The notes beneath the pieces were generated by a model. That model worked only from the letters and a program-made list of their open reading frames with translations. It was not told where the DNA came from and ran no database searches. From contig JAJZNW010000087.1 of NCBI GenBank assembly GCA_021811615.1, positions 2,263 through 66,262 on the forward strand: a stretch of DNA of 64,000 nt. The letters run 5' to 3'. The translations under genes and the position numbers were made by a program. The stretch comes from Bacteroidota bacterium (GTDB taxonomy: Bacteria > Bacteroidota > Ignavibacteria > Kryptoniales > JAKASW01). The first letter of the stretch is position 1. Every line of letters starts with the position of its first letter. Shown here one piece after another: positions 59,076-63,568 of the stretch.

Positions 59076-60164
59076 TCAGAAGTAGATGTGAGACTCGATC
59101 AGCGCTTCCATCGGTTGAGGTGCACCGAGGGCGTTCGTCGTGTTGAACCGAATCTGTGGCATGAAGTCAAGATGCGGAACCGGATAAATGTTGACGCCGA
59201 GTATGTACCTTGCGTAGTACGGTCCCCCGGCGAAGGTTTTGAAATAATCGAACCTACCCATTGCGAACAGGCCGTTTTCAATCTCATAAGTCAACTGGGC
59301 CATACCAGCGTTTGATGTAACGTTCGGTGGCAGAAGCGTGCCGGGTAGTGATCTTGCCCAATCATACTCGGCAAGCAATGTAAAGCGGTCATCCGCGCCG
59401 ATCCCTCCGTGGAATCCGTACATCATGGTACCGCTCGAGAGGTAAGCCGAGCCGCCAAGCATCAAGTTGATAAAACCTTTAGTAAGATATTCCACTCTGC
59501 CAATGAAAGCCTTTTTCGAAGTGAAGTTAATATTGCTGTAGCCGTCTCCGTTTGTAGCATCGACCGTGACAAGGAAATTGCTGAGCTGCGAGCCGACCTC
59601 CACTCCGACCGATCTGTAAAGCGGTCCGAATATGAGCCCGAGCTGAGGTATTCCCTGAAGGTAGCCAAAGTTTCCGCCCCTGGTGTAAGCGGTGTGGTCA
59701 TCGAGCCTGATTCCGTATGACGGCGCAAATGCACCAACTTTGACCCAGGAATTACCTTCATTGAAATCGTACATCCCATACGCTTCGTAAGCCGTGTTGA
59801 CAAAATCATACTTTATGTAAAGTCGTGTGGATCTGTAGATGTGTAATGAACTATAAAGAGCTCCCTCCATCGACTGGAAGGTGGTGTTTCTTGTCTGGCC
59901 ATCATACAGGTACTGGAACCTGACGTCTCCGCCAATCAGAATGTCCCGGGTGAGTTCGGGGCTGAAGTGGAACCCCTTGCCGTGACTCTTGAAAAGAGTA
60001 AGGTGGTCGTTCACGAAACTGGGAGCCTCAAAAGTATTTCGCAGCTCTCCTCCGGTTGGATTGACGTGGCAGTTCGCGCATTCCATACCGGTCATCATTG
60101 CGAATCGTGGGAGTGCGAAAGCGGCGTTGACCGTCATCAGTAGTATCAAAATTGTGCGGCGCAT
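59076..60164 (-). CDS. outer-membrane beta-barrel protein with a single N-terminal CxxCH heme motif (Cyc2-like fused cytochrome-porin candidate)
   Basis: Signal peptide MRRTILILLMTVNAAFA, then LPRFAMMTGMECANCHVNPTGG. The remaining ~330 aa are Gly/Tyr-rich and alternating, ending ...LIESHIYF. GAGAGG SD precedes ATG 60164. Confidence 0.6.
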   Translation of the reverse strand: MRRTILILLMTVNAAFALPRFAMMTGMECANCHVNPTGGELRNTFEAPSFVNDHLTLFKSHGKGFHFSPELTRDILIGGDVRFQYLYDGQTRNTTFQSMEGALYSSLHIYRSTRLYIKYDFVNTAYEAYGMYDFNEGNSWVKVGAFAPSYGIRLDDHTAYTRGGNFGYLQGIPQLGLIFGPLYRSVGVEVGSQLSNFLVTVDATNGDGYSNINFTSKKAFIGRVEYLTKGFINLMLGGSAYLSSGTMMYGFHGGIGADDRFTLLAEYDWARSLPGTLLPPNVTSNAGMAQLTYEIENGLFAMGRFDYFKTFAGGPYYARYILGVNIYPVPHLDFMPQIRFNTTNALGAPQPMEALIESHIYF

Positions 60165-60245
60165 TATTGAGCCTCTCTTCGTCGTTAGCAAAAAAGCCGG
60201 ACACACGCCCGGCTTTCGGAATTCCCGTACCCCCTTCTTATGTAG

Positions 60246-60662
60246 TTACTCAATCGGAGAAGGATGTTTGAACCCTCCAGGAGGCATATTCATCGGTCGC
60301 TCGTGTCCCTGGTGGCATGTATAGCAAGTCGGCTTTTTGGCGTGAGGGAACGAGAAATATGTCGATCTTAACTGGAGAAGCATCTTCAGCATGACCCGCG
60401 CTATTCGCTTCTGCGGCTTTGCGTCGCTGGCAAAATTGTTTGTGTTGTGGCAGAATGCACAATTGACGCCGAGGCTCTGCTTGAACATGTCCATCCAGCC
60501 CTTCAGCTCTTTCTTGGTCTTGACGAAGGTAAGAACCTGAAGATTTTTTCCCCACGATGGTTTGGCTTCCTGATTCGCGTATACTTTGTTATGTATCAGG
60601 AGGCTACCCACGCCGACAGCAATGAGGACAGGAAACACAAGCCAGTTCTTTTTCAGCATCAC
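60246..60662 (-). CDS. small membrane-anchored c-type cytochrome (reaction-centre-cytochrome-c-subunit-like fold, two CxxCH)
   Basis: N-terminal helix LVFPVLIAVGVGSLLI; NLQVLTF...MDMFKQSLGVNCAFCHNTNNFASDAKPQKRIARVMLKM...KPTCYTCHQGHERP. Confidence 0.75.
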   Translation of the reverse strand: MMLKKNWLVFPVLIAVGVGSLLIHNKVYANQEAKPSWGKNLQVLTFVKTKKELKGWMDMFKQSLGVNCAFCHNTNNFASDAKPQKRIARVMLKMLLQLRSTYFSFPHAKKPTCYTCHQGHERPMNMPPGGFKHPSPIE

Positions 60663-60713
60663 ATCTCCATTTTTAAAACACTAACAGGATGATGGAGCTT
60701 AAAGGTTCCTCAA

Positions 60714-62063
60714 TCAGAAGGAGAAATTGAACATGACTCTGGGCTCGATTCTCTTCTGCACCTCGTAGCCGCCGCTGACGGGGATAAATGTCCAGTAATA
60801 ATTGAAGCCAACCGTCATGAACGGGTACGGCTTGTAGCCGAAGAAAGCGTAAAGGAGCGATCTCTTATCGAGCTGGAAGGCATCCTTGAAACTCTGGATT
60901 CCCCACCGGTCATAGCCTGCGCTGAACGCGATCATCGGGACGAGGTTCGGGAAGCGAGTCTCGAGATGGAGCAATCCTCCGTTCGGGTCATGATCGATTC
61001 CCCGGTACCCGCCGACAATCTGGAATTGCTGGAGGACCGCCACAGTGATCTGCCCGTACCATCCCTGACCGCCCGGAGTATTGGCCAACTGAGTTGCCTG
61101 GCTGAAGTATCCGGTGTCATTGGGAACGTACCGGTTGAGTTCGTAGAATTGGTTGAAGTATTCCGGGATGAATTGGCGTCCGATCCACTGGTGTTCAAGT
61201 TTGACCGAAGCTTTAGCGAGCCCGAGGCTGTTGAAGTTGACGAGCACTCCCGCCGCAGAGCCGTGACCAAAATGGTTGATCTGCGCATAGTCGTAGTAGA
61301 GGTCTGCGTCGGCAAAGGGAATCCGTAGAATGGGAAGCCCGGCATCGAATCCATATTCAGATAACCTACCGGTATTATATGGGGTATATGATGTTCCCAA
61401 GCCCCCGCCGTTGACCGGAACAGCCGTCGCTTCCCGGTAAACTATCCCTGAATTCGGATTCTGGTCGGTAACATAAGTGGCACCAAGTTCAAAGCCGCCG
61501 ATGACGGGAATCGCTCCGAGTGTCGTGAATCTGAGCGGCCTTACATAGGCCCTGCCTCCCGTAACACCGGGCTGGTTGAAATTGCCGTACATAGCCTGAA
61601 ATCCGAACTTGTTGAAATCCAGACCGAGCTCTGCGCCGATAGTTCTGTTATCATAGCTCGGACTATTGTTGTAGTCATACACGATGAACCCTTGCCCGAT
61701 GGTGGCCATGTCCATCTGCCCGACTTTGGCGAATACAGGATCACCCATCTGGCCCCAGCTTATATACCTGATTATTTTCCGGTAGGCGCCGCCAGACCAG
61801 TCTTGCTTCCTGATCTTGCCGGTGTTGGTCGAGATGCGCATTGTCAGATCCAAACCAATTCCGAGTTTTCCGAATTGAAGATCCGGCATGACGCCAATCA
61901 TATAGTATGGTACTGTCTGACCGTTTTCATTGATCCAGGATATACCTAGTCCGCCCTCGATTTGGCTTTCTCCCGGTGCAAGCAAGGGACGTGGATAATT
62001 CTGAGCGAAGAGCGAAGAGACCGATATAAATGTGATTGCAATTATTGTTGTTAGTGCTTTCAT
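60714..62063 (-). CDS. outer-membrane beta-barrel protein, function unknown
   Basis: Signal peptide ...SVSSLFAQ, Gly/Tyr/Phe-rich alternating sequence, C-terminus RVMFNFSF. Confidence 0.6.
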   Translation of the reverse strand: MKALTTIIAITFISVSSLFAQNYPRPLLAPGESQIEGGLGISWINENGQTVPYYMIGVMPDLQFGKLGIGLDLTMRISTNTGKIRKQDWSGGAYRKIIRYISWGQMGDPVFAKVGQMDMATIGQGFIVYDYNNSPSYDNRTIGAELGLDFNKFGFQAMYGNFNQPGVTGGRAYVRPLRFTTLGAIPVIGGFELGATYVTDQNPNSGIVYREATAVPVNGGGLGTSYTPYNTGRLSEYGFDAGLPILRIPFADADLYYDYAQINHFGHGSAAGVLVNFNSLGLAKASVKLEHQWIGRQFIPEYFNQFYELNRYVPNDTGYFSQATQLANTPGGQGWYGQITVAVLQQFQIVGGYRGIDHDPNGGLLHLETRFPNLVPMIAFSAGYDRWGIQSFKDAFQLDKRSLLYAFFGYKPYPFMTVGFNYYWTFIPVSGGYEVQKRIEPRVMFNFSF

Positions 62064-62078: not shown

Positions 62079-62615
62079 TTAACCGAAAAGAAGCCTGCAG
62101 ATCAGCAGAGCCCCCAGCATCCCGACGGCATCTGCGATCAAACCCGCCGCTACAGCGTGCCGCGTACGGTATACGTTTACCGCACCGAAGTATACTGCGA
62201 GTACGTAGAAAGTCGTTTCACTGCTTCCATACATCGTTGATACAAGTATTCCTATGAACGAATCGGGTCCATACCTTTTCATAATATCAGCCATAAGTCC
62301 GAGCGAGCCGCTGCCTGTAAGAGGGCGCAGGAGAGCCATCGGGACGACTTGCGGAGGCATTCCGATAAGATTTGCGGCCGGCGCAAGCAACTTGACGAGT
62401 ATTTCCATCGCACCGCTTGCTCTGAATATGCCGATTGCGACGAGCATAGCCACCAAATACGGAATGATCTTTATCGCAACTTCGAAACCGCCTTTCGCTC
62501 CCGCAACGAAGGATTCGTAAACCGGTACTTTCTTCCTGGCAGCGTAGGCTACAAACGCCGCGATGATGAACGGGATCGCGACGATCGACAGGGCCTGAAG
62601 GATATCCTTAATCAA
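62079..62615 (-). CDS. spmB: nucleoside-recognition (Gate) domain membrane protein, SpmB-like
   Basis: 178 aa and polytopic. IPYLVAMLVAIGIFRASGAM and GSSETTFYVLAVYFGAV patterns are typical of SpmB. There is a 4-nt overlap with the spmA-like gene. Confidence 0.75.
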   Translation of the reverse strand: MIKDILQALSIVAIPFIIAAFVAYAARKKVPVYESFVAGAKGGFEVAIKIIPYLVAMLVAIGIFRASGAMEILVKLLAPAANLIGMPPQVVPMALLRPLTGSGSLGLMADIMKRYGPDSFIGILVSTMYGSSETTFYVLAVYFGAVNVYRTRHAVAAGLIADAVGMLGALLICRLLFG

Positions 62616-63568
62616 TTTGACCCTCCGCTGTCCGGCTGATTACCGTCAAGCTTATCGTCAATCCTGTATATCTTCAGCCTCTGAAGAATCTTTGCTGCGA
62701 CGATTCCTGCGATCGTGGCCAGGCCAGCCCCAAAGAAAGAGGTCATCAGAATAATAGTCGGGTCCTTCGAACCGAGGGCTGCACGCACTGCGATTGCTGT
62801 TGCCGGGATAAGAGTCAGCCCCGCGGTATTAATCGCAAGGAAAGTTATCATCGAGTTCGTGGCGGTCCCCTTGTGCGGATTCAAACTCTCAAGATGTTCC
62901 ATGGCTTTCAGGCCGAGCGGAGTGGCCGCGTTGTTCAACCCAAGCATGTTCGCCGCCATATTCATGATCATCGCGCCGATTGCGGGGTGATCGGGAGGTA
63001 TGTCGGGAAATATCCTCACCATTACCGGCTTCAAAATTCGCGCGATGATTTTTATCATTCCGCTATCTTCGGCAAGCTTCATTATCCCGAGCCAGAAAGC
63101 CATTACGCCTATCAACCCCAGCGCAATTTTCACGGCAAGCTCGCTATAGCTTATCAGGGCGTCGAGAACAGCCTTTGTCTTTACAAGTGAAGTTGTCGGC
63201 AGAAGAATAGTCATCATGTCGCCGTGCCGGGAAAGGACTTTCGCAGTTATGAGCTTCGAATTGTCGTCGGTCTTTGCGACAGTCTTCCAAATCTCCGGAG
63301 AATCCTCTTCAGTGTAGATGTTTATGGAGCTGCCCGTCAGATCGGCGCGATAACTGATGGTATCCGGTGAATCGACATCTACACCGTAAAACTTGTCATA
63401 ATATTCGCGAGAATAGGAAATCGTCCCGCCTGCGGCACTCGTGCTGTCGTACTGAAGCTCGAACGGCTCTCCATTCCTGTAACGGTTTGTTGACGCGTCA
63501 TAAATGTCGGTCGACGCTGCAGCAAGCACGCCTATCAGGACGAGCCCAATCCAGACGTAGTTGAGCAT
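62612..63568 (-). CDS. spmA: nucleoside-recognition (Gate) domain membrane protein, SpmA-like with a ~115-aa insertion after TM1
   Basis: MLNYVWIGLVLIGVLAA ... [hydrophilic insert] ... AVKIALGLIGVMAFWLGIMKLAEDSGMI...DHPAIGAMIMNMAANMLGLNNAATPLGLKAM. Confidence 0.75.
   Translation of the reverse strand: MLNYVWIGLVLIGVLAAASTDIYDASTNRYRNGEPFELQYDSTSAAGGTISYSREYYDKFYGVDVDSPDTISYRADLTGSSINIYTEEDSPEIWKTVAKTDDNSKLITAKVLSRHGDMMTILLPTTSLVKTKAVLDALISYSELAVKIALGLIGVMAFWLGIMKLAEDSGMIKIIARILKPVMVRIFPDIPPDHPAIGAMIMNMAANMLGLNNAATPLGLKAMEHLESLNPHKGTATNSMITFLAINTAGLTLIPATAIAVRAALGSKDPTIILMTSFFGAGLATIAGIVAAKILQRLKIYRIDDKLDGNQPDSGGSN

Follow-up and report, generated by a model that had tools for sequence, protein, structure and literature searches.

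This study concerns a 64,000-nucleotide stretch of contig JAJZNW010000087.1 (positions 2,263 to 66,262; assembly GCA_021811615.1) from a Bacteroidota bacterium placed in the Kryptoniales, herein called the window, and three neighboring minus-strand open reading frames in it of 449, 138, and 362 amino acids, referred to as genes A, B, and C. Gene C very probably encodes a fused cytochrome-porin related to Cyc2. It is a remote homolog of Cyc2 that shares the architecture of that protein, and its family is a sister of Cyc2 and not a formal member of it. The C family is large, has neither a family name nor an annotation, and exhibits a heme-pocket signature of its own. Together with the small dihem cytochrome encoded by gene B, C is likely (with a probability of about 0.6) to form an electron conduit across the outer membrane.

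Gene C occupies positions 59076-60164 of the minus strand, on which all features of the window described here are located. The mechanically called open reading frame begins at a GTG at position 60206; the ATG at 60164 was taken as the start because the homologs possess an equivalent ATG and a length of about 362 amino acids. The resulting protein (MRRTILILL...AFA|LPRFAMMTGMECANCHVNPTGG...HIYF) agrees with the initial annotation, in which C was described as a signal-peptide protein of 362 amino acids ending with HIYF. Read by eye, the N terminus displays the typical n, h, and c regions of a signal peptide, and the C terminus is an aromatic β-signal. The putative signal peptide spans residues 1-17 (MRRTILILLMTVNAAFA, positions 60114-60164), and its AFA|LP junction, likewise assigned by eye, is kept in the homologs. 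It is followed by the putative heme-binding segment, which was delimited by conservation and hhalign to residues 18-42 (LPRFAMMTGMECANCHVNPTGGELR, positions 60039-60113) and contains the motif CANCH at residues 29-33 (positions 60066-60080). The mature N terminus conforms to the pattern LPxFA-x3-G-x2-CxxCH. Within the 64 kb of the window, CxxCH motifs occur in the open reading frames B and C only.

The conservation of C was evaluated in an alignment of 227 sequences that includes relatives from other phyla. Five residues are conserved in 100% of them, namely C29, C32, H33, G38, and G78, closely followed by R42 (99%), R82 and H359 (98%), P19 and D80 (97%), R162 (96%), M99 and H157 (95%), and D156 (94%). 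The CxxCH motif is also found in every listed homolog with an intact N terminus; two entries without it (P0043 and P0044) are missing that part of the protein. Because the motif is conserved throughout the 227 sequences and the listed homologs, a chance occurrence was ruled out, and the earlier description of a single CxxCH within about 15 residues of the cleavage site holds for a genuine motif. Heme would be attached covalently, in the manner of c-type cytochromes, within the first ~55 residues of the mature protein.

The remainder of C forms a β-barrel (residues 75-362, positions 59079-59942) that ends with HIYF. In the AlphaFold2 (AF2) model, calculated from a 44-sequence alignment, 16 β-strands are arranged within residues ~75-361, with a predicted template-modeling score (pTM) of 0.72 and a predicted local distance difference test score (pLDDT) of mostly 73-89 for the barrel. 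The porin-like barrel that had been suspected in the initial annotation is thus recovered with a defined strand number, and its best fold matches in Foldseek include the porins OprO (4rjw; TMq, the template-modeling score relative to the query, 0.59) and OprP (2o4v; TMq 0.58) as well as OmpT of Vibrio cholerae (E 1e-10). The fold shared with OprP/OprO and with general 16-stranded porins (TMq 0.55-0.59, E ~1e-10) is accompanied by a sequence identity of 10-14% only, and porins of the OprP/OprO type contain no heme segment. Further features specific to the C family, compared with these porins, are the conserved His and Met residues facing the lumen and a DDH-containing loop. The latter, which is long, connects strands 5 and 6 (residues 147-184, positions 59613-59726), carries the conserved sequence P.YGIRLDDHTAYTRGG, and stands out by the conservation of D156, H157, and R162. 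Scans of C against Pfam and NCBIfam, either with the whole protein or with the N terminus alone, returned no match. A search of the PDB with the C-family profile gave hits below threshold only, of which the best was a multiheme cytochrome aligned over the signal peptide and the CxxCH motif (E 0.13).

Cyc2 has been defined by a signal peptide, a single CXXCH motif, and a 16-strand porin similar to OprO/OprP, which are also the reported structural templates for it; in the sequence screen of Keffer et al. (2021), the motif AXPXFAR[Q/K][T/Y] is located upstream of CXXCH and PXL four residues downstream (PMC8406198). The same authors regard Cyc2 as a monoheme c-type cytochrome, and for the recombinant protein of M. 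ferrooxydans PV-1 they determined a redox potential (PMC8406198). For comparison with C, Cyc2-type proteins of Ralstonia, Caballeronia, Methylocystis, Ideonella, Polymorphobacter, and an A. ferrooxidans plasmid were retrieved from plasmid and megaplasmid records by tblastn; herein a Cyc2-like peptide served as bait and for no other purpose. These real proteins have annotated lengths of 444-553 amino acids, and their consensus, A-[VIL]-P-x-F-A-[RA]-Q-T-G-x2-CxxCH-x2-4-P-x-L-T-x-[FY]-G-R, agrees with the published motifs, the Ideonella protein having N in place of A after F. At each of the five loci, out of six, for which genes are listed, a c-type cytochrome gene follows the Cyc2-type gene. The Cyc2-type profile collected 2,354 further relatives.

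In profile-profile alignments by hhalign, the C family and the Cyc2-type proteins match with a probability of 91% (E 1e-6, 36 columns) for small profiles of 44 versus 6 sequences, and of 96% (E 4.8e-9, 29 columns) for large profiles. The match persists after removal of the signal peptides (92%, E 5e-7, 18 columns), the aligned mature segments being LPRFAxxxGxxCxxCHVN in the C family and VPxFARQTGxxCxxCHVS in the Cyc2 type. In a control, Cyc2 was aligned with a different set of CxxCH proteins, which yielded 6% (E 0.0066, 8 columns); a CxxCH motif alone is therefore insufficient to produce the score obtained with C. For the barrels alone the match is marginal (12.7%, P 0.0023) and the global mode failed, so homology of the barrels is not shown by sequence.

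Cyc2 and Cyt572 comprise the Fe(II) oxidases of Acidithiobacillus, Mariprofundus, Gallionellaceae, Chlorobium, and Leptospirillum, which correspond to the FeGenie clusters 1-3. C resembles them in its putative signal peptide, in the lone CxxCH located ~10 residues into the mature protein, in the identically spaced segment [LV]-P-x-F-A-x3-G-x2-CxxCH, and in the 16-strand OprP/OprO-like barrel. In addition, a gene for a small dihem periplasmic cytochrome is adjacent in both cases, which is cyc1-like and c4-like in type for Cyc2, whereas B is PufC-like. The heme pocket after CxxCH differs as well, being of the form xxxPxL in Cyc2 and NPxGG(G/E)xRN in the C family. In contrast to the hosts of Cyc2/Cyt572, those of the C family are heterotrophic Kryptoniota and Ignavibacteria.

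Several signatures separate the two families quantitatively. The motif P.FAR[QK][TY] is found in 102 of 124 Cyc2-type sequences and in none of the 227 C-family sequences, and PxL at +3 or +4 after CxxCH in 118 of 124 versus 0 of 227. Conversely, CxxCH-x-[ND]P-x-G is present in 201/227 C-family members and 0/124 Cyc2-type proteins. Common to both is the spacing signature P.[FYLI][ASTG]-x6-CxxCH (204/227 and 120/124, respectively). The median length is 372 amino acids in the C family versus 449 in the Cyc2 type. FeGenie applies a length filter of 365 amino acids for Cyc2, most representatives of which have at least 400 (PMC8406198); with 362 residues C falls below this filter, as do 52 of the 227 family members in total. 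Compared with the definition of Cyc2, C possesses the single N-terminal CXXCH and the OprO/OprP-like barrel of 16 strands, and it departs from Cyc2 in three tested features. Its upstream motif reads A-L-P-R-F-A-M-M-T, in which AXPXFA and T are present and M-M replaces R[Q/K]; its heme motif continues as CANCH-VN-PTGGELR with no PxL; and it is too short. The motif-based screening by Keffer et al. would have left C out of their set. The earlier proposal of a Cyc2/Cyt572-type cytochrome-porin is consequently borne out in the architecture and the N-terminal homology (E 4.8e-9), and it does not extend to formal membership in Cyc2, for which motifs and length are lacking. Some members of the C family may already have been counted loosely as Cyc2. 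In a FeGenie-based survey, iron-oxidation genes were credited to Ignavibacteriales, and at most of the sites cluster 3 prevailed among the Cyc2 types (PMC8478452), and a Cyc2 homolog defined by BLASTP was reported for a metagenome-assembled genome (MAG) of Ignavibacteriaceae (PMC6344600).

Gene B (positions 60246-60662) encodes a dihem c-type cytochrome of 138 amino acids that can be described as one half of a PufC subunit. Its heme motifs are CAFCH (residues 68-72, positions 60447-60461) and CYTCH (residues 113-117, positions 60312-60326). B scores 83.6 bits over residues 39-123 against the NCBIfam family NF033196 (c_type_nonphoto), which has a cut-off of 70, matches Pfam CytoC_RC with 2.7e-14, and aligns with the first two heme units of PufC subunits in the PDB (E 4e-18). 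It remains below the equivalog cut-offs of PufC (57.4 versus 150) and Puf2C (45 versus 800) and has only two heme sites compared with the four of the tetraheme PufC subunit. PufC is an electron-donating cytochrome of photosynthetic reaction centers, genes for which are absent from the window. Both heme sites of B are conserved in 23 orthologs, together with a signal peptidase–like site, V[YF]A|x. Because this cleavage-like site is conserved, B is more likely a cleaved, soluble protein of the periplasm, as judged from its sequence, than an anchored one; of its initial annotation as an anchored c-type cytochrome, the cytochrome with CAFCH and CYTCH is upheld and the anchor is the less likely reading.

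The gene context of C was compared across 80 genome loci, of which 23 stem from Kryptoniota and 57 from Ignavibacteria. B immediately precedes C in each of the 23 Kryptoniota loci and in none of the 57 Ignavibacteria loci. In two rearranged Kryptoniota loci (L024 and L032), the B-C pair stands alone between genes of the opposite strand, with A absent. Hence, B and C constitute a separate, lineage-specific pair. The two genes are 81 nt apart in the window, and RNA folding places a terminator-like, GC-rich hairpin followed by a U-run between them (positions 60190-60216; 11-bp stem, 4-nt loop), 25 nt upstream of the start codon of C. The hairpin is not listed by a consensus terminator scan and is based on the RNA fold and on its recurrence, since a GCCGGG/CCCGGC hairpin with a T-run and a variable loop sequence is found in the seven closest relatives. 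The only promoter-like match before C overlaps its start codon and was disregarded.

A word-indexed search retrieved 131 homologs of C at E<=1e-3, and an exhaustive profile search 2,156 representatives clustered at 50% identity at the same threshold, 967 of them with E<=1e-10. All members bearing a source name are called "hypothetical protein." The closest relative, 97% identical to C, comes from "Bacteroidetes bacterium SKS5.bin54," and the next ones are labeled Kryptoniota, the source of the window itself being a MAG of Candidatus Kryptoniota; the family is found in Kryptoniota and Ignavibacteria and reaches Nitrospirota. The identity to C of the window amounts to 56-97% within Kryptoniota and 32-39% within Ignavibacteria. 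By the loop pattern DDHTAYTR, 216 species genomes were recovered, including MAGs of Ignavibacterium and Melioribacter. Some support for a role of the family in electron transport comes from two distant members. In a Deltaproteobacteria MAG (L099), the C homolog is followed by a dihem c4-type cytochrome, a cytochrome bd–like subunit I, and more c-type cytochromes, and in a marine Nitrospiraceae contig (L097), the C-family member follows a protein with Cytochrome_P460/CBB3 domains.

Taken together, a mechanism can be proposed. The short heme segment of C would occupy or adjoin the opening of the barrel toward the periplasm. The heme would there be a neighbor of D80, R82, M99, and H359, which are conserved and face the lumen, and of the DDH-containing loop. 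C would then pass single electrons across the outer membrane between small, soluble redox species outside and the periplasm. In Kryptoniota, B would act as the periplasmic acceptor and hand the electrons on to the respiratory chain. The external partner would most likely be Fe(II), which is favored by analogy with Cyc2; as the specific role of C, Fe(II) oxidation is nonetheless a tentative assignment that we hold somewhat short of even odds. Barrels combined with c-type hemes also serve trans-outer-membrane electron transfer in MtrAB, MtoAB, PioAB, and the Geobacter complex OmbB-OmaB-OmcB, whose gene clusters likewise pair a barrel gene with a gene for a periplasmic cytochrome. Therein a separate multiheme cytochrome is threaded through a barrel of 20-26 strands, whereas C would have one heme fused to a barrel of 16.

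A number of observations weigh against such an inward-conducting device. The AF2 model is heme free, and its pLDDT drops below 50 for residues 30-72 and 155-173, which are the regions key to the mechanism. Significant sequence similarity between C and Cyc2 is confined to 18-36 N-terminal columns, and a hidden Markov model built from 124 Cyc2-type sequences as a surrogate for FeGenie assigns C 20.9 bits, in the N terminus only. In the clade of the window, the hairpin stands between B and C, so the transcription or regulation of C may be independent of B. The 64 kb of the window hold no oxidase, heme-maturation gene, or further cytochrome, and the other genes near C are housekeeping genes (pyruvate kinase, SIR2, penicillin amidase, metH, recN, cysS). 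In the 57 Ignavibacteria loci, C adjoins housekeeping genes, e.g., those resembling dxr and rseP, with neither A nor B nearby. Finally, cultured Ignavibacteria are heterotrophs and Fe(III) reducers and not Fe(II) oxidizers (PMC8478452, PMC7914226). Because of these hosts, the housekeeping context, and the genes missing from the window, some weight has to be given to an outward flow of electrons and to a nonrespiratory role. In the former, the same device would work in reverse, C exporting periplasmic electrons via B or another cytochrome to Fe(III), humics, or a surface cytochrome in dissimilatory or assimilatory metal reduction. Such a flow would suit the frequency of the C family in Ignavibacteria (216 species genomes), described as Fe(III) reducers and heterotrophs, and seven Ignavibacteria loci encode upstream of C a T9SS-sorted and hence probably surface-exposed CxxCH protein that could be the extracellular partner. 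Yet B resembles the electron-donating PufC, the C-family member of L099 adjoins a terminal oxidase–like gene, and the characterized fused cytochrome-porins, i.e., Cyc2 of A. ferrooxidans and M. ferrooxydans PV-1 and Cyt572, are all Fe(II) oxidases (PMC8406198), which leaves the reversed flow unlikely. Quite improbable is a housekeeping role apart from respiration, such as redox conversion of iron during uptake, detoxification of Fe(II) or peroxide, or redox gating or sensing by the pore, with the adjacency of B being incidental or lineage specific. The identity of C does track taxonomy, the Ignavibacteria copies lack respiratory genes in their surroundings, and many homologs of Cyc2 occur in bacteria that do not oxidize iron, their function being deemed uncertain (PMC8406198). 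Against this, the B-C pair survives at least two rearrangements, and the distant members in L097 and L099 lie inside cytochrome and oxidase clusters.

Two further explanations depart from the B-C conduit more radically. The CxxCH of C could be a disulfide or metal site within a Temptin_C-like minidomain that sits on a porin and binds no heme. The part after the motif (NPxGGGxRNxFG) indeed aligns with the Pfam Temptin_C region of proteins sorted by the type IX secretion system (T9SS) with 95% and E 6e-8, and we know of no record of heme binding by Temptin_C, a literature search on the point having been uninformative. However, all 227 sequences retain the His of CxxCH, the Temptin-like neighbors carry exactly two Cys and then the His, a bona fide c-type cytochrome is encoded next door, and the segment preceding CxxCH aligns with Cyc2, a monoheme c-type cytochrome (PMC8406198); this explanation is therefore very unlikely. 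The idea of the initial annotation that A, B, and C co-occur as one outer-membrane module, a form of which would be a porin-cytochrome complex with A sheathing B, fares even worse and was abandoned. It is suggested by the codirectional arrangement with tight gaps (A-B, 51 nt; B-C, 81 nt), by the ~25 strands of the barrel of A, and by the order spmA-spmB-A-B-C in 21 of 23 Kryptoniota loci. The latter figure, however, reflects synteny of a whole region that also takes in leuA, leuCD, and pyruvate kinase. Among five more distant loci with A, four of Ignavibacteria type (L006, L094, L095, and L096) have it directly after spmA-spmB and without a cytochrome, followed instead by proline dehydrogenase and an OPT transporter, and in the fifth (L007), spmAB and a cytochrome are both missing next to A. 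None of the five thus pairs A with an adjacent cytochrome, B offers only two hemes, and L024 and L032 contain B-C without A. On the basis of this gene context, the notion that A sheathes B was rejected. Because the distant loci keep spmAB without a cytochrome, A belongs with spmAB and not with the cytochromes; unlike the barrels of porin-cytochrome complexes, it forms the outer-membrane part of a distinct unit, spmA-spmB-A, and does not belong to the C-B device.

Cyc2 is the main genetic marker by which microbial Fe(II) oxidation is inferred from genomes and metagenomes. With the C family, a sister of Cyc2 is described whose sequence diversity is equal or greater (2,156 clusters at 50% identity) and whose heme pocket differs. 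If its members conduct electrons, extracellular electron exchange would be more widespread among the abundant Kryptoniota and Ignavibacteria of sediments, hot springs, and the subsurface than annotation suggests, and "Cyc2-like" matches would not automatically signify iron oxidation. The family moreover provides natural variation in the surroundings of the heme, with NPxGG in place of PxL and with Met99, His157, and His359 as invariant residues, for the study of single-heme electron transfer in a 16-strand barrel.

The surface proteins next to C in Ignavibacteria are T9SS-sorted proteins of ~222 amino acids, whose genes immediately precede C in the same orientation, 51-201 nt away. The seven genes of this Temptin_C type are located at L004:7110-7799, L048:5177-5845, L064:5230-5868, L065:476-1150, L075:5249-5923, L077:5225-5893, and L084:4499-5164. 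The Pfam domains Temptin_C, FlgD_ig, and Por_Secre_tail were identified in the two that were scanned (L004 and L075). The only two cysteines of these proteins are those of the CxxCH within IPNG.KFSC.NCH.[DN]P.GGG.RN.FG. Owing to the shared motif after CxxCH, the heme pocket of C looks like a module common to these putative surface proteins, which may be surface monoheme partners of C; bacterial Temptin_C domains may accordingly bind heme. A broader reading, which we regard as rather doubtful, is that the C family forms a class of monoheme cytochrome-porins in its own right, ancient and very large and sister to Cyc2, whose pocket CxxCH-x-NP-x-GGG-x-RN-x-[FY]G is portable and occurs also in Temptin_C-type surface proteins. 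The chain from a surface monoheme protein via the porin heme to a periplasmic cytochrome would then be an unrecognized conduit of the Fibrobacterota-Chlorobiota-Bacteroidota (FCB) group and other phyla that present iron-gene annotation would overlook or lump loosely into "Cyc2 cluster 3."

Several variations were noted among the relatives of C. A minority of the family (P0294, P0322, P0325, P0362, P0369, and P0381) has a second CxxCH ~25-30 residues after the first and a different segment in place of NPxGG; these would be dihem cytochrome-porin variants. The cluster in L099 (L099:2880-13752) comprises a C-family member of 583 amino acids, EB_dh-domain proteins, the dihem c4-type cytochrome, a universal stress protein, the cytochrome bd–like subunit I, and another three c-type cytochromes, and has the appearance of a full chain that leads from an extracellular donor to an oxidase. 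About 20 of the 57 Ignavibacteria loci (within L037-L093) show upstream of C a block on the opposite strand with a multipass membrane protein of ~200 amino acids that belongs to no Pfam family, and the genes after it look like dxr and rseP from their N termini, as read by eye. In approximately nine further Ignavibacteria loci, the codirectional gene that directly precedes C encodes a T9SS-sorted protein of 1,284-1,559 amino acids. One homolog, 34% identical to C of the window, lies on a 5-kb contig (L069, JAEOUE010000170.1) binned as the Asgard archaeon "Candidatus Hodarchaeum mangrovi"; it is most likely a binning contaminant, since its identity resembles that of the Ignavibacteria copies.

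The genes upstream of B complete the locus. Rfam and tRNA scans of the window gave no matches. As had been stated in the initial annotation, the three genes run in the same direction directly downstream of spmAB, with the coordinates, lengths, and end sequences confirmed. The pair consists of an spmA-like (positions 62612-63568) and an spmB-like (positions 62079-62615) membrane protein 5' of A; they overlap by 4 nt, and a gap of 15 nt separates spmB from A. Both contain a Pfam Gate domain (E 8e-13 for the spmB-like and 9.5e-15 for the spmA-like protein). Gene A itself (positions 60714-62063) encodes a protein of 449 amino acids ending with MFNFSF, which was assigned by AF2, Foldseek, and gene context as an outer-membrane β-barrel. 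Its model has ~25 strands at a pLDDT of 82 and the sequence contains no CxxCH, in line with the second, heme-less barrel that had been predicted. Foldseek relates A loosely, and only, to outer-membrane barrels (TM 0.3-0.38). Against the equivalog NF047543 of the Leptospira protein ImpL63, A scores 44.8 bits, far below the cut-off of 1000, in a partial match over residues 230-402, which suggests by sequence a weak and distant similarity only. The arrangement spmA-spmB-A, in which two Gate-domain proteins of the inner membrane precede a barrel of ~445 amino acids, is conserved in Kryptoniota and in Ignavibacteria-type genomes; it may constitute an envelope-spanning transport system.

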